Below, one piece after another: positions 24,454 to 37,842 of a stretch of DNA of 43,856 bases (position 1 is the stretch's first letter; each line of letters opens with the position of its first letter). Location: the sequence record PQ850603.1; one strand, 5' to 3'. Position numbers and translations under genes: made by a program. This stretch comes from Escherichia phage GertrudWoker_Bas73. Below the pieces are notes generated by a model. It worked only from the letters and a program-made list of their open reading frames with translations, searched no databases and was not told the origin of the DNA.

Positions 24454-25874
24454 TTCTTACCTCGTCTCTTCATGTAGTTAAGCAACTCTTCCTGTACCGA
24501 TTTCTTCTCGTCGGTACGCGCGGCAACAACCTCGTCCAGCGTGTCTTTAGCGACTATGTGATAAAGGAACACCGGGCGCTCGTGCCCAGCTTGTTTCTGG
24601 CGAACAGGGCCGATGCGCTCGACAACCTGCAAATAGTGCTCAAGATTCCAGCCTTGTGAAATAAACGCCAGATGATGGCCGCCGTCCTGTAAATTCAAAC
24701 CATGCCCGGCTGACGCAGGGTGTACGCATAAGATTTCTATTTCGCCGCGGTTCCACGCTTCCATCTGCTTATTACCCTTCGCGCCTTTGGAAAACGCCTG
24801 CGCCTGTGGGAATCGCTTAAGGATGCGCTCAAGTTCGTGCTTGAACTGATAGGCGACCAGCAACGGCGCGCCCTGCAACTCCTCCACAATTGACTCCAGC
24901 GCATCAAGTTTCGTGTCGTGCACTTTCTCCCATTCTTTGGTTGATTCGCCATCTGGCCCCGATACATACACGGCACCGGAGGCAATCTGTAGGCACTTCG
25001 ACGTCTTCGCCGCAGCGTTAGCCGCTTCAACTTCTCCGCTTTCCAGTTCCGCGAATAACTTCTCCTCCATATCGATGTACGCCTGACGTGCTTTCTTCGG
25101 CAGGTCGATTTCAACCGGCACAATAATCGGCGCTTCACACCCGAACCACTCGGCGGCGTCAATCGTGAGACTAATGTCCTTCATCTTCTGGTGAATTTCA
25201 TTATCCGCACCCGGGCGTGCGTGGTATTCACGGGCCATCGCAGATTTCCCTTTCTGTACCGAGTTAAACCAGCGGTCGGTGAATGCTGTGTACGATGACC
25301 CCAGGCGCTCGCCTGCGTCGATAAACCAGTTCTGCCCCCACAAGTCCTTGAGGCCGTTTGGTGACGGCGTGCCAGTCAGGTTAATGAAACGCTTAACTTT
25401 GCCAAATGCCACTTTACTAAGCGCCTTTGCCCTCTTGCTGCCTCCAGAACGGCTACGGAATGACTTGAGCTTCGTGCTTTCATCGGCGACGATAACCGTA
25501 AAAGGCCAGTCGTCTTTGCCGTAGTAGTCAATAAGCCACTCGATAACTTCGTAGTTCGTGCACACCACGTTAGCATCTGACTCCAGCGCCGCGATGCGGC
25601 GCTTCTCCAAACCAGTCGCGTCTACGACACGCAGACATGGGAAATTCCACTTAGTTTGTTCCGCCGGCCATGTGCCTGATGCAACGCGCAACGGGGCGAG
25701 GATTAACACGCGGTCCTCTTCTGTAAGCTGCCCGTTGCGGAACAGTCGGTTTAATGTCCACAGTACGCTGCCAGTCTTCCCGGCGCCCATGCTCGCCCAA
25801 ATATTACAGCGATGGTGCCGCAACATGAACGAAGTCATTAGCTTCTGGTATTCGCGCCTTTGAAACTTACTCAT
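24450..25874 (-). CDS. SF2 DNA helicase (DEAD/SNF2-like)
   Basis: Walker A 'SMGAGKTGS', motif II-like 'VIVADEST', C-terminal helicase motifs 'HPASAGHGLNLQ' and 'QVVERIGPVRQ'. Confidence 0.75.
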   Translation of the reverse strand: MSKFQRREYQKLMTSFMLRHHRCNIWASMGAGKTGSVLWTLNRLFRNGQLTEEDRVLILAPLRVASGTWPAEQTKWNFPCLRVVDATGLEKRRIAALESDANVVCTNYEVIEWLIDYYGKDDWPFTVIVADESTKLKSFRSRSGGSKRAKALSKVAFGKVKRFINLTGTPSPNGLKDLWGQNWFIDAGERLGSSYTAFTDRWFNSVQKGKSAMAREYHARPGADNEIHQKMKDISLTIDAAEWFGCEAPIIVPVEIDLPKKARQAYIDMEEKLFAELESGEVEAANAAAKTSKCLQIASGAVYVSGPDGESTKEWEKVHDTKLDALESIVEELQGAPLLVAYQFKHELERILKRFPQAQAFSKGAKGNKQMEAWNRGEIEILCVHPASAGHGLNLQDGGHHLAFISQGWNLEHYLQVVERIGPVRQKQAGHERPVFLYHIVAKDTLDEVVAARTDEKKSVQEELLNYMKRRGKK

Positions 25875-26661
25875 TTACGGCCCCCATGAACGCCTTTATA
25901 AATTCAGCGGCTACTTGCGGGACGATAGCATTGCCGTAACCGCGCAATCGTCCCACTCTGGCGGGTACCCCATTAGCCAGCGGGAATGTGCTGGGTTCAA
26001 CTGGCCTGAATTTTCCATCCCGGCATCCGAGCCAGTCAGCATCTGACCAGAACCCGTTAGGCGGATTGGCTGTGTCAGAGATGCCTCTGTTTGCAGATTG
26101 TGGCCCCCGTTCCTGCCCTGATGGCCTGCTCCCGCCGAGTTGTTCGCACACGGTGTTGGCCAGTTGCTGCGCTCCGAAGAACAATCGATTCCTTTTGTGC
26201 GGTGCGCCGACGCTACAAGCTGGGAGTACGGCAAACCCGACGGCGTAGTCTTCTCTTTCCAGGTGAGTTTGTAAATCGCACATCCACGATTTTGCAATTG
26301 CTGCCGCAACCTGCTCCCCAAAGATGACTGGAGGGTGGCACTCGCTGATGAGGTCGAGGAGCACAGGTGCGAGGTGTCTCTGGTCGAACTGTCCGAGTTG
26401 CTTTCCTGCCGTGCTAAACGGTTGGCAAGGCGGACTTCCCGTCCATATAGGCGTATCTTCAGAAACTCCCGCAAGTCTGAGCGCGAGAGGCCAGCCGCCG
26501 ATACCCGCGAAAAAATGACACTGGGTGAACCCGTCAAGGTCTTCTGGCTTAACTTCGGTAATGCTTCTTTCATCTACAACTCCAAAAGGTATGTGACCCT
26601 GTTTTATCAACTCACGCAGCCACGCGGCTGCGCCTTTATCCCATTCATTGTAATAGTTCAT
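25867..26661 (-). CDS. DNA (cytosine-5)-methyltransferase, compact
   Basis: motif I 'FAGIGG', motif IV '[13 protein letters not shown]' (catalytic Cys), motif VI-like 'FGEQV', motif VIII-like 'KRNRLFF'; only 264 aa. Confidence 0.7.
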
Positions 26662-26849: not shown

Positions 26850-27165
26850 TTCTAAATTCCTTATATTGTTGGGGTATGTGCTTACTATAATAGTCTGCTA
26901 TTAGGGTGTCAATCTGTTTTATCGAACCAACGACAAAAACATTTGCGCCACGTTTACGTATACGCTCGTGTTCCCGTAGCTGGTGCGGGTCTGGCTTAGT
27001 GTTTTCGTCTTTCTTCACCTCGACGAACCAGACGATGCCGCCGGGTAGAATTGCCAGCAGGTCAGGAGCGCCTGAACGTCCTTCGTAGGAAAGTTTACGA
27101 ACGAGGCCACCAATAGCCTCGAATCGCTCTTTTGCGTATTTCTGGATGCGGCCCTCTTTAGTCAT
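26833..27165 (-). CDS. VRR-NUC domain nuclease
   Basis: PD-(D/E)XK-like 'GAPDLLAI ... VWFVEVKKDEN'; ~110 aa. Confidence 0.6.
   Translation of the reverse strand: MTKEGRIQKYAKERFEAIGGLVRKLSYEGRSGAPDLLAILPGGIVWFVEVKKDENTKPDPHQLREHERIRKRGANVFVVGSIKQIDTLIADYYSKHIPQQYKEFRNETRI
26884..26912 (-). promoter_or_regulatory. sigma70-like promoter TTGACA-N17-TATAGT with AATAGtctgCTATT palindrome
   Basis: minus strand reads 'TTGACAccctaatagcagactatTATAGT'; lies inside the 3' end of the VRR-NUC ORF. Confidence 0.45.
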
Positions 27166-27314
27166 GACCGCAGCATCCAGGTAAGGAAAACCCAGCCTAG
27201 AATGGCAACACCGGCAAACTGAAAGAACAGGCCGTAACAGAACATAGCAGCTATTCCCGCACCGAGTAACAGTGCGAGCATGGTTACTATGGTCCTAAAT
27301 ACAAACATTGTCAT
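27162..27314 (-). CDS. possible small membrane protein (50 aa)
   Basis: RBS 'gaggggtg'; hydrophobic 'TMLALLLGAGIAAMFCYGLFFQFAGVAILGWVFL'; stop overlaps VRR-NUC start (ATGA). Confidence 0.35.
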   Translation of the reverse strand: MTMFVFRTIVTMLALLLGAGIAAMFCYGLFFQFAGVAILGWVFLTWMLRS

Positions 27315-27396
27315 AATACGCACCCCTCACGTTTCGTATGCTCAATCCCGCAGCGCGGGCAGATTCGGCAGTCTTCTTCATAAAACCAGTAAATTT

Positions 27397-27528
27397 TCAT
27401 TCCAGCACCCACATATAAATTGCGATGAACATGCCCAATATGGCAACCATCATGCCGTATTGTCCCTCGTGACAGTAGACACCGGCGGCAAATCCCGCCA
27501 GTACCGCGATAATCAGTTTACTTGGCAT
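27397..27528 (-). CDS. possible small membrane protein (43 aa)
   Basis: RBS 'gaaggag'; hydrophobic 'LIIAVLAGFAAGVY ... MMVAILGMFIAIYMWVL'; start overlaps HNH gene end. Confidence 0.35.
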   Translation of the reverse strand: MPSKLIIAVLAGFAAGVYCHEGQYGMMVAILGMFIAIYMWVLE

Positions 27529-28213
27529 CTCTACATTCTCCTTCAGGCCACCTATTAGGAAAAGACGGTATATGTGAAACTTCTCTCGCCGCTTTTATTC
27601 TTTTAATGGTGGGACCTATCTCCGTAACCATTTCAATGAATGTAAACCGGTGTCCTCTGGTAAGATTACATGTCTGACAACAAGAAACGCAGTTAGATAC
27701 TATGTGCCCGCTTGTATTATCTATGCGGTCTACCCCGACTTTTGTAGTGCTTCCGCAATAATGGCATGGCTGTGATATTAGTTTAATAACGCTTTCCAGT
27801 GTTAAATCGCAGATAAGCCCTTTTCCTGAATCTGCTCTTTTGTATCCTAACAAAAGCGCGTACGCCCGCGTCCTTTGGTCCTTATTCACCCGTTCCCTGC
27901 GTTGCTTGTTGAGACACTCCCGGCAATCTTTCCTGATATGAGAGCCATTACTTTTATTTCCTTTCCTGAAGTTTTCCTCTGTTAAAGGTTTTACCTCCCC
28001 ACACTTTCTGCATTTAACAGGCTTCCCAGTGAAAACATACCAAGGGCTTTCTCGTCTGGATTTACCTTGTAATTTAAGTTTTTCGTCATACTTTTCCTTC
28101 CTGTTAGCATTTACACACTCTTTACACCAGCGTTGCAGCCCGAGGCGCGTTGACTTTGAAAAATACTCTGTAGTCGCCGGTTTATCTTCGCCGCATCTTG
28201 AACACTTTTTCAT
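27518..28213 (-). CDS. HNH endonuclease (homing endonuclease-like) with N-terminal zinc-ribbon repeats
   Basis: 'CHYCGSTTKVGVDRIDNTSGHIVSNCVSCCQTCN' HNH motif; two 'CxxCGxxKP...CxECxN' repeats; AT-rich versus flanks; track start TTG 28225, ATG 28213 with GGAG RBS preferred. Confidence 0.7.
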   Translation of the reverse strand: MKKCSRCGEDKPATTEYFSKSTRLGLQRWCKECVNANRKEKYDEKLKLQGKSRRESPWYVFTGKPVKCRKCGEVKPLTEENFRKGNKSNGSHIRKDCRECLNKQRRERVNKDQRTRAYALLLGYKRADSGKGLICDLTLESVIKLISQPCHYCGSTTKVGVDRIDNTSGHIVSNCVSCCQTCNLTRGHRFTFIEMVTEIGPTIKRIKAAREVSHIPSFPNRWPEGECRDAK

Positions 28214-28223
28214 TAATAACTCC

Positions 28224-28259
28224 AAAAAAAAATACCGACATAGCCATTATATCGGTATT
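28224..28259 (-). terminator. terminator-like hairpin between polymerase and HNH genes
   Basis: minus strand: 8-bp stem 'aataccga/tcggtatt' with 13-nt loop followed by 'tttttttt'. Confidence 0.4.
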
Positions 28260-28290
28260 TACATTTTCTACAACGTATTTCCTAAATCTA

Positions 28291-30471
28291 CTACTTGGCG
28301 TATCTGTACATTTCGCTACCTTCTGCTACAAGAGGGAACCCCTCCGCCCACTCCGGTAATTCGCACATCAACCGCTCAAGCTCTGCAACATTGTATTCTG
28401 GCGTATCTGGTGTTTCGCAGATAATTTCGTCGTGTACGTGAAGCACAATAGGATAGCCGTTTGCTTCAACGTTCAGCAGTGCATTGGCCAGCAAATCACG
28501 GCACAGCGCCTGAGTACAGTTTTCCACGAGTTTACCAGAGTAGGTGTACTGGAAGCCCCACTGACGGGTTAACTGGTTCTCCCCCTGGTACTTGATGCGT
28601 ACGTTAGTAGACACTTTTCCATCTTCGTCTGTTTCTTTCGACACGCTTAACCCGACGCCCGGATAAGACATAACGCGACCCGACGGCAACGTCATGCGCA
28701 ACCACCAGCCGGCGACTTTGTTGCCGTTGTTGTCTGTCTCTACGTTGCGCGAAAACTTAACCCCCCTAGGCCCCGCGGTGAACTCTTTACCTGGATTGCG
28801 GATAGCGGCCATAGCTGCGTCTTCAATATCTCGCCAGAAAGCTACTGTTTCAGGGTGTGACTCTCGCCACATACGCTTGATAGCGTCACAGGTACGCCAC
28901 ACTTTCTTATCAAGAATATACGATGGTCGGTCATCCTTCTCCCCGGGTCGCGGCGGTCGCTTGGCTTCCTGAATACGTGCCCATTCATAGCCGCGTGCAG
29001 TAGCCGCCCAGATGTGGTCCGGGAAAGTACCGTCCATTGTTTTTGACATATCAACAAGGTCAAGTCCGAGGTTCTTAGCAAACTGAACGAAAGCGCCAAC
29101 ACCACCAGCGTAGCCGAGGCCAAGCTCGCAGGCTTTACCAATCTGGCGCAAGTCTTTGCGTTCCTTCTTAATGTAATCCGGCTCCATGCCGAACATCTTA
29201 CCCGCGGTTACACAGTAAATGTCCAGCCCGGCGCGGAACGTATCTAGCGCGGTTTCTTCGCCTGCCAGCCACGCAAGCCCCCGACCTTCAACGTTAGAGT
29301 AATCGGCGACGACAAACTTTTTTCCGGCTTCCGGGATAATGCAGCTACGCACCGTCGATGCCGTTAGCTTAGCGACATCGAAACGGCGATGCGCGCGGCC
29401 CTTAAGTAACGCTGAAATACCTTTATCCAGTTCATCATCGTGATAGTACCCACGCGCGAGGTTCTGCGGCTGAAATCCTTTACCGGCAAATCGTAATGTA
29501 CGCTTGGCTCCGCCGTACTGAATGCAACCACGACGGCGGTCGTCCGACGAGCGCCCTAACAGCAGCGGGTTATATTTCGTTGACGCTGTGGACGCGGCCC
29601 CGAGGCGCATTTCGATAATCGTGCGTGCGTCGTCCGGTAAATCATCATCCGCCAACAGGTCGTTAAGCGTAGACTTCTGCGCGTTGTGGATGCGGTGCGC
29701 TGGTGCAAGTTCACGCAGAATCGGCAGGAAGTCTTTACCAGTAAGCGAGCCGCCGTATTTGCGCTGTGCTTCTTCCTGTAGCTGGGCCTTGTGTTTTTCC
29801 ACGGCTTCAATCGCGGCTTCCGCCAGCGTCACATCAACCTTAAACCCACGGTCGTTAATCAACTGGTCCAGTTCCAGTACACGGTCTTCGAACTCGGAGT
29901 TACCCCAACGCGGCAGCTTATGGAAGACTTCACGCATCGCAGTGATGTCGCTCACGGCGTACATGATGAACATCGCCCACTCGTCAGGGTGAGTTTCTGC
30001 GGTGTAGCGGCGGATTTTGTAGTTCTTCGGCGTCGGTTTAGAGAAACGCTTAATCAGAGCCTTGCCGCGTTTATCTTTCGCGTTGTCTGCAGACACGCCC
30101 AGCACTTCGCACAGCGCATCAAGAGAACCCGGCAGCGCGTGACGGAACGCCCAAATCATAGTATCAATGGTGTTACTTACCGGAATATCAAAGTCCCAGC
30201 AGTGTTTCATGATTAGGCGATCGAAAAGTCCACCGTTGTGCCACACCATCTTGATGCGGCTGTTGGGCTTAACAAGGCGGCGCAGTGCGCGGTGTAAATC
30301 CCCCGGCATGTCGCTGCCGTCGGTGCAATCCCATACCCGCACAGGTTCGTCGTCAAAAGCATATGTACAGATAAGCACTTCTGTAGTTGGGTGTTCGGCG
30401 TAAGCGTAAGAGCCGACTTTCTTTAAATCGGCTTCGGAGAATGTCTCAAAGTCTAAGAACAGGTAACTCAT
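28291..30471 (-). CDS. DNA polymerase I (family A) with 3'-5' exonuclease domain
   Basis: Exo I 'FLDFETFS'; motif A 'DYSNVEGRGLAWLAG'; motif B 'RQIGKACELGLGYAGG'; motif C 'VLHVHDEI'. Confidence 0.9.
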   Translation of the reverse strand: MSYLFLDFETFSEADLKKVGSYAYAEHPTTEVLICTYAFDDEPVRVWDCTDGSDMPGDLHRALRRLVKPNSRIKMVWHNGGLFDRLIMKHCWDFDIPVSNTIDTMIWAFRHALPGSLDALCEVLGVSADNAKDKRGKALIKRFSKPTPKNYKIRRYTAETHPDEWAMFIMYAVSDITAMREVFHKLPRWGNSEFEDRVLELDQLINDRGFKVDVTLAEAAIEAVEKHKAQLQEEAQRKYGGSLTGKDFLPILRELAPAHRIHNAQKSTLNDLLADDDLPDDARTIIEMRLGAASTASTKYNPLLLGRSSDDRRRGCIQYGGAKRTLRFAGKGFQPQNLARGYYHDDELDKGISALLKGRAHRRFDVAKLTASTVRSCIIPEAGKKFVVADYSNVEGRGLAWLAGEETALDTFRAGLDIYCVTAGKMFGMEPDYIKKERKDLRQIGKACELGLGYAGGVGAFVQFAKNLGLDLVDMSKTMDGTFPDHIWAATARGYEWARIQEAKRPPRPGEKDDRPSYILDKKVWRTCDAIKRMWRESHPETVAFWRDIEDAAMAAIRNPGKEFTAGPRGVKFSRNVETDNNGNKVAGWWLRMTLPSGRVMSYPGVGLSVSKETDEDGKVSTNVRIKYQGENQLTRQWGFQYTYSGKLVENCTQALCRDLLANALLNVEANGYPIVLHVHDEIICETPDTPEYNVAELERLMCELPEWAEGFPLVAEGSEMYRYAK

Positions 30472-30486
30472 TATTTTCGACCCTTA

Positions 30487-30511
30487 GTAAAAAGGCCCAA
30501 TGAAGGGCCTT
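30487..30511 (-). terminator. hairpin terminator between SSB and polymerase
   Basis: 'aaggccc aatga agggcctt' flanked by A/T runs. Confidence 0.5.
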
Positions 30512-30530
30512 AGTTAAATTGATTCAGATA

Positions 30531-31205: not shown

Positions 31206-31234
31206 AGTGATTAGAACTATAATAGCTAACTATT
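31206..31234 (-). promoter_or_regulatory. sigma70-like promoter TTGACA-N17-TATAGT with AATAGctaaCTATT palindrome
   Basis: minus strand 'TTGACAcatgaatagttagctatTATAGT' ~45 nt upstream of SSB start. Confidence 0.5.
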
Positions 31235-31433
31235 CATGTGTCAAATAAAATTTTGCAATAGGGATTATGTTCTCGAAATTAAGCATATTGGCCGGTTCGA
31301 ACTCATCCTCTACAGGGTCGTATCGCATCATGGTACCGTTCAAGAACGTGAACGATTCCGAGTGTAGATACCCATCCCAGCGCCATACCATCAAAAAATC
31401 TTTATCAGTCGGCATTTCATTTACTTGAATCAT
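31230..31433 (-). CDS. hypothetical protein (67 aa from ATG at 31433)
   Basis: ATG overlaps exonuclease stop (ATGA) and is preceded by 'GAGGAGGA' SD formed by the exonuclease C-terminal codons; track start 31463. Confidence 0.45.
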   Translation of the reverse strand: MIQVNEMPTDKDFLMVWRWDGYLHSESFTFLNGTMMRYDPVEDEFEPANMLNFENIIPIAKFYLTHE

Positions 31434-36792: not shown

Positions 36793-37019
36793 TTCACGTT
36801 CTCCTTAATCCACGCTTCCACTTTCTCCGGGTCAAACGTACCTGGCTGACGGCGGCCCATAATGCGAATACAACAATCCGGGAACTTCCCACTCTTTAAC
36901 CAGTTATTCAGCGTTCGACGAGTAACCCCGATACGCTCAGCTACCTCATTCTGCGTCATTCTCAAACCCTCATTATCAGTTAACGAAACAAGTATACATT
37001 GCGAATAATGGGAAATCAA
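36789..37019 (-). CDS. small HTH DNA-binding protein (AlpA/excisionase-like)
   Basis: 'MTQNEVAERIGVTRRTLNNWLKSGKFP' HTH; likely start at internal ATG (36959) with RBS 'gaggg'. Confidence 0.5.
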   Translation of the reverse strand: MISHYSQCILVSLTDNEGLRMTQNEVAERIGVTRRTLNNWLKSGKFPDCCIRIMGRRQPGTFDPEKVEAWIKENVK

Positions 37020-37306
37020 ACATAATCACACCTATTGACATTATGAAAATCTTCGTTTAAGGTGCTTCTATATCTTAGTTACTTTGATTCTTGTTCACCT
37101 TGTAAAACCGCTTAAAACGCAGCTGCGCGCAGCGCAAGCAAAGTGTTAAGCGCAAGTTTACTGAACACGAGAATTAGCGTAACTTTCCTTCCTAAGTATC
37201 TTCGGTTGCCCTGGGCAAGCTCTATTCTCATCGGCAGCATATCTCTTAAGTATCTGATTTTCTTAATGTGCCGCAGATTCGCAACCGTAAAAATGTAACG
37301 ATTATT

Positions 37307-37332
37307 GGGCAGGCTTAAGGCCTGCCCTTTAG
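37307..37332 (+). terminator. GC-rich hairpin, possible weak terminator in control region
   Basis: 'gggcaggc ttaag gcctgccc' followed by 'tttagtt'. Confidence 0.35.
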
Positions 37333-37399
37333 TTACCAAGTAATAAGAATAATGGCACAACCATACCTGAAGAATCACAACGGCAACGTAACTATTCTC

Positions 37400-37428
37400 T
37401 TGCACACCCCAACATAATAGGATACTAT
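37400..37428 (+). promoter_or_regulatory. sigma70-like promoter TTGCAC-N17-TACTAT with AATAGgataCTATT palindrome
   Basis: 'TTGCACaccccaacataataggaTACTATtcac' 25 nt upstream of the 37454 start. Confidence 0.5.
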
Positions 37429-37453
37429 TCACTTATCGAAACGAGACAGAGGG

Positions 37454-37654
37454 GTGAGGGTTATGTTTAAGAAGGGTCAGTTGGTGAAAACGATGTACGG
37501 TAGCTTCGGTATTATTGAAAAGAAATCGACAGTGTACCGAAGTTCTTATGTCGTTAGCTTACTCAGGGAGCACGGGTTAAGTTCCGCAGCGTATTACCGA
37601 GAGTATGAAATTAAACTCATCGGCAACAATTTTAAATTCAAAGGGGCGAAGTGA
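37454..37654 (+). CDS. hypothetical early protein
   Basis: 66 aa; RBS 'gaggggtgagggtt'; first gene of rightward early block. Confidence 0.45.
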   Translation: MRVMFKKGQLVKTMYGSFGIIEKKSTVYRSSYVVSLLREHGLSSAAYYREYEIKLIGNNFKFKGAK

Positions 37655-37842
37655 TGGAAGAATTAATTTACGACGTATACGTCGACGGGGTTATCTCAGA
37701 GACGACAAGTAATAAAGATTACGCAATAAAGCTGTATGTGTATTACGCCGCAGAGGTAGGAAGGATGGTCGAAGTGCGGGAGCAAACGGCATCGAATCAT
37801 GATGCTCGTGCCGACGACTCTGATGGAGGTTGCCGTGAATAA
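37651..37842 (+). CDS. hypothetical early protein
   Basis: 63 aa; ATGA overlap with upstream gene. Confidence 0.45.
   Translation: MMEELIYDVYVDGVISETTSNKDYAIKLYVYYAAEVGRMVEVREQTASNHDARADDSDGGCRE

Follow-up and report, generated by a model that had tools for sequence, protein, structure and literature searches.

The replication region of Escherichia phage GertrudWoker_Bas73 raises the question of why a small, AT-rich gene with an HNH motif stands directly behind the gene for a family-A DNA polymerase and by which route it came to be there. The stretch that was analysed, which is called the window here, comprises the 43,856 nucleotides (nt) of sequence record PQ850603.1, and the gene in question (27518..28213, minus strand) encodes a predicted PacI-like HNH endonuclease of 231 amino acids (aa), as indicated by the open reading frame (ORF) call, the PHROG match, the homologue alignment, and the profile and fold searches. 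As judged by sequence comparison, the insert that contains this gene is probably a self-propagating, free-standing HNH homing-endonuclease cassette of about 825 base pairs (bp). An earlier note on this DNA had proposed a horizontally acquired free-standing homing endonuclease, and this proposal is supported by the low guanine-cytosine (GC) content of the insert, the rarity of its carriers, the precise empty sites, a cassette that is more conserved than its flanks and a breakpoint at its edge. The same note had described an ORF of 235 aa. An ORF of that length is indeed present on the minus strand (27518..28225) when it is counted from a TTG codon, but the TTG start was not upheld. The true start is almost certainly the ATG at 28213-28211, which gives 231 aa, because it follows a GGAG ribosome-binding site (28220..28223, minus strand) at a distance of 6 nt, the TTG overlaps that site, and all of the homologues begin with MK.C.RC.

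The window belongs to Kagunavirus, and the 3 kb around the HNH insert are 98.8% identical to Escherichia phage SonjaBuckley_Bas74. The same 3 kb matched 451 phage records, mainly Kagunavirus and Jerseyvirus (Guernseyvirinae), of which only three, Bas74, KMB35 and Bas72, have the insert; among the junctions found in IMG/VR, one was filled (contig L007) and 29 were empty. The comparison of the polymerase to VRR-NUC junction in relatives, which had been suggested as a check, showed that most of them are without the gene and that the empty sites can be defined to the base. The impression of an AT-rich island also held on calculation, with a significant difference in composition. The GC content was 41.4% for the insert and 43.0% for the HNH ORF compared to 51.2% for the window; the value for the insert corresponded to z = -2.95 against same-size non-overlapping windows, and only 0.4% of the sliding windows were equally low. 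Moreover, the GC content at the third codon position (GC3) of the HNH ORF was 0.40 compared to 0.54-0.63 in the polymerase, methylase and helicase genes.

In the insert-free relatives, the polymerase gene ends with ...TATGCCAAGTAA, and the ATG that is embedded there starts a resident 43-aa gene (phrog_10404; 27397..27528 in the window, minus strand). Across the 34 sequenced empty sites, the polymerase stop overlaps the start of the next gene, while in the window it is the HNH stop that overlaps this start. Compared to the empty relatives, 773 bp were added in the window, which the relatives show as a clean 773-bp gap, and the insert is flanked by the 10-mer A(C/T)GCCAAGTA at 28301-28292 and 27528-27519. 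The first copy of this direct repeat, ACGCCAAGTA (28292..28301, minus strand), lies at the polymerase end and has TAC instead of TAT, which destroys the ATG, and the stop there is TAG. The second copy, ATGCCAAGTA (27519..27528, minus strand), lies in the HNH stop region and holds the start codon of the 43-aa gene (27528-27526). The end of the HNH gene, ...AGAGATGCCAAGTAA, restores the overlapping start, and AAGGAG is found 9 nt upstream of it within the HNH coding sequence. We also considered a longer duplication of the polymerase C-terminus in the HNH tail (PEGECRDAK vs AEGAEMKRYAK), which was rejected; the homologues end with ...TGETK, and only the last ~10 nt are duplicated. Additionally, the last ~25 nt of the polymerase gene are recoded, with SEMYRYAK replacing the AEMKRYAK of phages such as Bas71 and NTEC3 or the QELKRYAK of phages such as Bas70. 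This cassette-linked 3' end, GCAGAAGGTAGCGAAATGTACAGATACGCCAAGTAG (28291..28326, minus strand), encodes ...AEGSEMYRYAK*, uses the TAG stop and has lost the downstream ATG. It was identical in five of the five carriers and was found in none of the 34 empty sites, which were taken from GenBank and IMG/VR and have ...GCGGAGATGAAGCGTTATGCCAAGTAA or ...CAGGAGTTAAAACGTTATGCTAAGTAA instead. At the insertion point, the alleles of carriers and empty genomes differ in two respects, namely the recoded polymerase end and the junction that is split by the insert, and these changes would give the carrier resistance to cutting.

The whole mobile cassette, taken as the maximal high-identity tract common to diverged carriers, spans 27514..28337 (minus strand). 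In the alignment with L007, identity jumps from ~78% to ~99.5% at ~28337 and falls back at ~27514, with divergence setting in at 28338 and 27513. Across the five carriers (the window, Bas74, KMB35, Bas72 and L007), the cassette including the recoded polymerase end was 99.5-99.9% identical, while the 1 kb upstream was 78-97% and the 1 kb downstream 62-99.5% identical. In the 1017 nt upstream of the cassette, the window polymerase was 100% identical to that of the HNH-minus phage NTEC3, 99.9% to that of Bas71 and 97.1% to that of the HNH-plus phage Bas74, and mismatch mapping showed that the differences between the window and Bas74 directly adjoin the cassette edge. Because the window polymerase is nearer to NTEC3 and Bas71 than to Bas74, a recombination breakpoint is indicated at the left edge of the cassette. 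Homing would be expected to leave such a conserved cassette in diverged backbones, with breakpoints at its edges.

The position of the gene is also constant outside this group of phages. The homologues that are 49-64% identical were always located directly 3' of polA. Those with 60-64% identity were found on three metagenomic contigs (L008, L009 and L012), each right after a family-A polymerase, and two of the three contigs share an upstream module of PD-(D/E)XK, Enc34-type single-stranded DNA (ssDNA)-binding and polA genes. On all three, the polymerase ends with (TAC)GC(N)AAGTAG-TAG, and the HNH gene is 10-13 GC points below the polymerase; in Dhillonvirus, this gap is only 2 points. Among database phages, PhiSTP2 is the closest to L008 and appears to be without the gene, as concluded from its matched span, which is ~780 bp shorter (54% coverage, four pieces), and not from the junction. 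In the Dhillonvirus JLBYU60, a 49%-identical homologue lies between polA and VRR-NUC, and the gene is polymorphic in this genus, being present in 26 of the 158 records. The Dhillonvirus junction follows the same design, with a recoded polymerase end, TAG instead of TAA, and an ATGA stop/start overlap with the next gene that is rebuilt at the HNH stop.

This constancy bears on the idea that the gene encodes a restriction-like weapon, i.e., a PacI-type site-specific nuclease that degrades the DNA of the host or of competitor phages, so that carriers would gain from exclusion and not from gene conversion. The closest solved relative of the protein is a restriction enzyme, a role as ‘viral restrictases’ has been speculated for the viral homologues of PacI (PMC5714182), and cutting empty competitors would likewise favour the carrier. 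However, the constant position behind polA in five lineages as well as the allele-specific recoding of the polymerase end point to the junction as the target, not to a short, frequent site, and the tandem zinc ribbons suggest that a long site is recognised. We regard a weapon that acts by exclusion as unlikely, although the weapon and homing roles are not mutually exclusive.

Other inserts were observed at or near the same place. In the Dhillonvirus Opt212 (L017 1213-1449), a different ORF of 78 aa occupies the polymerase-stop junction in place of the HNH gene, and in Pubbukkers (NC_073068.1), an intein is annotated inside the polymerase. Selfish inserts seem to settle preferentially in the polymerase gene and at its 3' junction in these phages. 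In phage bob (MN850628.1 213-674; P0009), the Dhillonvirus-type homologue matches only residues 1-165, with the HNH motif lost afterwards; this copy may be a decaying homologue or an artefact of the point at which the record was linearised.

In the case of the protein, the two zinc-ribbon repeats that had been noticed ahead of the HNH motif proved to be real. Ribbon 1 (C4, C7, C30 and C33; 28115..28204, minus strand) has four Cys that are invariant in the close homologues and aligns with the N-terminal ribbon of PacI, while ribbon 2 (C68, C71, C97 and C100; 27914..28012, minus strand) was recognised from the close-homologue alignment and from an internal repeat that comprises both CxxC...CxxC ribbons (BLASTP E = 7e-10, 41% identity). 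The predicted beta-beta-alpha-metal core (27665..27766, minus strand) contains the zinc site C150/C153/C179/C182 and the residues D162, R163, D165, N166, H170, N174 and N183, arranged as C150-x-Y-C153-G ... D162-R163-x-D165-N166 ... G169-H170 ... N174 ... C179-x-x-C182-N183. These core residues and all 12 zinc Cys of the three predicted Cys4 sites were invariant in homologues that were 49-97% identical. The motif that the earlier note had written as CHYCG...DRIDN...N...CCQTCN is thus a genuine one, but the His of ‘CHYCG’, which had been read as catalytic, is not conserved, and the enzyme is PacI-like and not a canonical HNH protein.

PacI (PDB 3LDY/3M7K; His-Me finger group 20 of Jablonska et al. 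2017) was the best solved structure for the close-homologue profile (E = 0.0012), in which GVDRIDNTSGHIVSNCVSCCQTCN aligns with GVDRSDSFEGYSPQNARLACFICN of PacI. The AlphaFold2 model of the HNH protein had a mean predicted local distance difference test score (pLDDT) of 86.4, and the fold search also found PacI to be closest, with a Cys4-stabilised beta-beta-alpha-metal core and an N-terminal CxxC...CxxC zinc ribbon in common. Both proteins have the motif G-x-D-R-x-D ... G-(Y/H) ... N ... C-x-x-C-N and neither has the canonical beta-1 histidine; D162-R163 align with D92-R93 of PacI and are nearly invariant in 35 homologues, with no His at the end of beta-1. In PacI, an Asp and an Asn hold the metal, and a Tyr replaces the usual His as the base (PMC4081073, PMC5714182). 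According to the profile alignment, on which the equivalence of H170 and this Tyr rests, D162 and N183 match the metal ligands and H170 matches the catalytic Tyr (Tyr100, chain numbering). A PacI-type tyrosine was not found in the omega-loop, where the aligned residue is His170. Unlike PacI, the window protein has a duplicated zinc ribbon, a helical linker and a C-terminal tail (231 vs 142 aa), and its gene lies in a mobile phage cassette, whereas that of PacI is a bacterial-chromosome gene. PacI acts as a homodimer that cuts TTAAT|TAA, and the comparison of the two proteins covers sequence and fold only. We therefore describe the HNH protein as a predicted variant of the PacI design in which His stands at the catalytic position and one more zinc ribbon is present.

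A wider family with the pattern DRxDN-G(Y/H) comprised 63,681 cluster representatives at E values up to 0.001. In 73 of the best 148 representatives (P0035-P0182), two tandem DRxDN-GY...CxxCN domains form a single-chain ‘dimer’, which is not seen in the window protein. This family is informative as to whether the protein could be a DNA-binding zinc-finger protein, such as a regulator, that is catalytically inactive and hitch-hikes with a degenerate HNH motif devoid of the canonical His. Such a protein would fit ‘DRID’ standing for the usual ‘DH’, the lack of a significant HNH match in Pfam and NCBIfam, and the existence of inactive groups in the His-Me superfamily (PMC5714182). On the other hand, PacI, which is active, has the same DR-D...G-Y...N...CxxCN arrangement (PMC4081073), no variation was seen in the close family at the metal ligands D162 and N183 or at the base position H170, and, among the 203 motif matches in the best 148 representatives, the position after the conserved Gly was occupied by Tyr in 185 and by His in 13. 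Loss of catalysis is consequently very unlikely.

The names under which the gene is found in databases suggest yet another role. It has already been deposited as ‘endonuclease VII’ or ‘restriction endonuclease’, and PHROG phrog_1035 ‘endonuclease VII’ matches the HNH protein at 1e-29. Together with the constant location of the gene in the replication module, adjoining polA and near VRR-NUC, and with the mosaic nature of these phages, these labels would agree with a nuclease that has an accessory role in replication or recombination, for instance a junction resolvase similar to endonuclease VII, and that is ordinary replication-module cargo shuffled by general recombination and does not spread by itself. 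The protein does share with T4 endonuclease VII the HNH/beta-beta-alpha-metal superfamily and a CxxC...CxxCN zinc site, and some annotators gave it that name. However, with VRR-NUC the phage is already equipped with a resolvase, and the gene is dispensable, being absent from about 99% of the relatives. Pfam scans at E values up to 10 returned only three weak non-nuclease matches, all below the cut-offs, and neither Endonuclease_7 (PF02945) nor PF01844 was among them. Moreover, a polymerase end that is recoded together with the cassette and a downstream start that is rebuilt precisely are typical of selfish inserts. Membership in the endonuclease VII family was rejected because the label comes only from PHROG and GenBank and is unsupported by Pfam or the fold search; an accessory nuclease of this type is quite unlikely, and both deposited labels are probably wrong. 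A PHROG match to ‘Lar-like restriction alleviation’ (1.5e-9) was likewise rejected as a function because it covers the zinc ribbons only.

Between the polymerase and HNH genes lies an intergenic control region of 77 nt (28214..28290, minus strand), whose layout is the same in the homologous cassettes of L008, L009 and L012. It contains a conserved 14-nt motif, AAATACGTTGTAGA (28267..28280, minus strand), which includes a -35-like TTGTAG (28273-28268), is kept across four diverged lineages and occurs once in the window. A perfect -10-like TATAAT (28246..28251, minus strand), whose function is putative, lies 16 nt after TTGTAG in the loop of a terminator-like hairpin. The latter had been reported as a hairpin with a T8 run at 28224-28259 before an abutting GGAG; the hairpin, the T-run and the GGAG are all present, but the run is T9 (28232-28224) and the hairpin extends over 28260-28230, so that the whole structure occupies 28224..28260 (minus strand) and the stem takes in one to three of the T's. 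The free energy of the hairpin was -14.1 kcal/mol (z = -4.35), and none of 200 shuffled sequences folded as well. In the four lineages, the polymerase stop is followed by ~30 conserved nt that include AAATACGTTGTAGA, a strong hairpin, a -10-like box in its loop, a T-rich run and a ribosome-binding site. The hairpin is found at the same place in every homologous cassette, with a lineage-specific stem sequence, and the loop box stands 16-17 nt after TTGTAG as TATAAT in the window and L008, TATTGT in L012 and L009, and TATAGT in L007. RNAalifold was run on five intergenic sequences, which were out of register between lineages, and its covariation counts were not used as evidence. We infer that the region holds a terminator against read-through from the polymerase gene and, overlapping it, a weak promoter that would serve the cassette and the small genes downstream; TTGTAG-16-TATAAT is the candidate promoter on account of its conservation.

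Several observations weigh against the interpretation of the insert as a homing cassette. Pfam and NCBIfam gave the HNH protein no significant nuclease match, and the canonical HNH His is absent, with Arg163 in its place; the predicted activity therefore rests on the analogy to PacI. Ordinary homologous recombination in mosaic phages could also yield the cassette pattern, and the window shares the downstream 1 kb with Bas74 too. The insert is found in about 1% of the related records, which indicates that it has not swept through the group. Furthermore, the sigma-70 scan did not call TTGTAG-16-TATAAT as a promoter, because its -35 box matches in three of six positions only.

A homing cassette of this kind would consist of a replacement polymerase 3' end, a short control region and the gene for the 231-aa PacI-like HNH nuclease. 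During co-infection, the enzyme would cut the insert-free genome at or near the junction of the polymerase stop and the start of the 43-aa gene, and repair of the break from the cassette-bearing genome would copy the cassette in. The carrier would be immune because its site is interrupted by the insert and the polymerase gene is recoded over its last ~25 nt. In the enzyme, D162 and N183 are predicted to hold the metal ion and H170 to take over the general-base role of the PacI tyrosine, while the two N-terminal zinc ribbons would lengthen the DNA recognition surface. The hairpin and T-run may block read-through from the polymerase gene, TTGTAG-16-TATAAT may restart transcription, and the AAGGAG-N9-ATG that is rebuilt at the 3' end of the HNH gene would keep the downstream gene translated. 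With a terminator, a restart element and a rebuilt start, the insert would therefore impose hardly any cost on the phage.

Free-standing homing endonucleases of lytic phages include the T4 Mob and Seg proteins and the F-Tfl enzymes of T5. The cassette resembles them in that a self-contained, intergenic nuclease gene adjoins a conserved gene of DNA metabolism and is present or absent among close relatives, in its co-converted flanks that differ in carriers, in its AT-richness and in its own regulatory signals that limit the cost to the neighbours. It differs in that cleavage and biased inheritance were demonstrated for the T4 and T5 enzymes, whereas they are predicted for the window cassette, and in that the window family is tied to the polA stop codon in several genera. 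Moreover, the HNH homing enzymes of T4 and T5 have the canonical His, while the window protein has a PacI-type core. By its predicted behaviour, the element is of a well-known kind, a free-standing phage homing endonuclease of the HNH superfamily, and by its predicted fold it goes with PacI, minus the defining tyrosine. Terminase-associated HNH proteins of the HK97 gp74 type, which are neighbours of cos and terminase, are needed for packaging and have the canonical H-N-H residues (PMC3592412), are also small phage HNH proteins with additional zinc-ribbon modules; the window gene differs from them in being located after polA, optional and PacI-like.

On the minus strand, the genes are ordered as ssDNA-binding protein, family-A DNA polymerase (28291-30471), the HNH ORF, ORFs of 43, 29 and 50 aa, VRR-NUC, a 63-aa ORF, C5-methyltransferase and SNF2 helicase. 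The placement of the HNH gene between the polymerase and VRR-NUC genes in the earlier note was approximately right, except that the three small ORFs intervene before VRR-NUC. The 29-aa ORF, MKIYWFYEEDCRICPRCGIEHTKREGCVL (27311-27400, minus strand), has a CxxCxxC...C pattern. At its position, KMB35 has a related, non-identical ORF that is annotated as ‘HNH endonuclease’, which is probably a mis-annotation of a mini zinc-binding peptide that is far too short for such an enzyme. Between the ssDNA-binding and polymerase genes, Bas71 and Bas72 have an ORF of 51 aa (L002 4696-4851; L005 5321-5476), which is lacking in Bas74 and in the window (30472-30530) and constitutes a second small presence/absence polymorphism that flanks the polymerase gene. 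An ORF of 220 aa (25911-26573, minus strand), which is predicted only, lies in another frame wholly within the C5-methyltransferase gene (25867-26661), and its equivalent in K1G is annotated as ‘Mte8-like protein’. Two near-consensus sigma-70 promoter-like sites, TTGACA-17-TATAGT, each matching 11 of 12 positions, were found at 26884-26912 and 31216-31244 (both minus strand); one is upstream of the ssDNA-binding and polymerase genes, and the other lies within VRR-NUC, ahead of the genes for the 63-aa protein, the methylase and the helicase. The site inside VRR-NUC would maintain the expression of the methylase and helicase even with an efficient cassette terminator. No second member of the HNH family was found in the window. 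The sole other stretch of the window that is as AT-rich as the insert (36853-37786; ~40% GC) contains small divergent ORFs, including one for a helix-turn-helix-like protein of 76 aa, and a gap of ~400 nt; it was rejected as a mobile nuclease island and looks like an early regulatory switch region.

Our literature searches found no paper describing this gene or element. It is conceivable, though doubtful, that the cassette represents the first recognised homing-endonuclease lineage on a PacI-type core, with His in place of the catalytic Tyr and a duplicated zinc ribbon that extends target recognition. The one target of such a lineage would be the junction at the stop codon of family-A polymerase genes, which it would have followed across at least five lineages of phages (Kagunavirus, Dhillonvirus and three uncultured relatives). 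Its mobile unit would be a complete one, comprising a replacement for the polymerase terminus, a terminator whose loop holds the -10 box of a promoter for renewed transcription, and a restored translational coupling to the next gene. The filled phages (Bas72, Bas74 and KMB35) and the near-isogenic empty ones (Bas70, Bas71 and NTEC3) exist as cultured isolates with sequenced genomes, in which both the donor and the recipient allele can be specified to the base; those with Bas names are part of the BASEL collection, which is accessible to the community (PMC11990801). Compared to PacI, the protein presents a naturally occurring Tyr-to-His exchange at the catalytic position, and a zinc-ribbon-guided, long-site nuclease of 231 aa could be of interest to enzyme engineers. 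Free-standing homing endonucleases shape the mosaicism of phage genomes and the competition between phages, and few have been worked out beyond those of the T-even phages and T5. The cassette is a clean and informative example that is not surprising in kind, and it would give a function to one branch of the very large, uncharacterised family of PacI-like HNH proteins.

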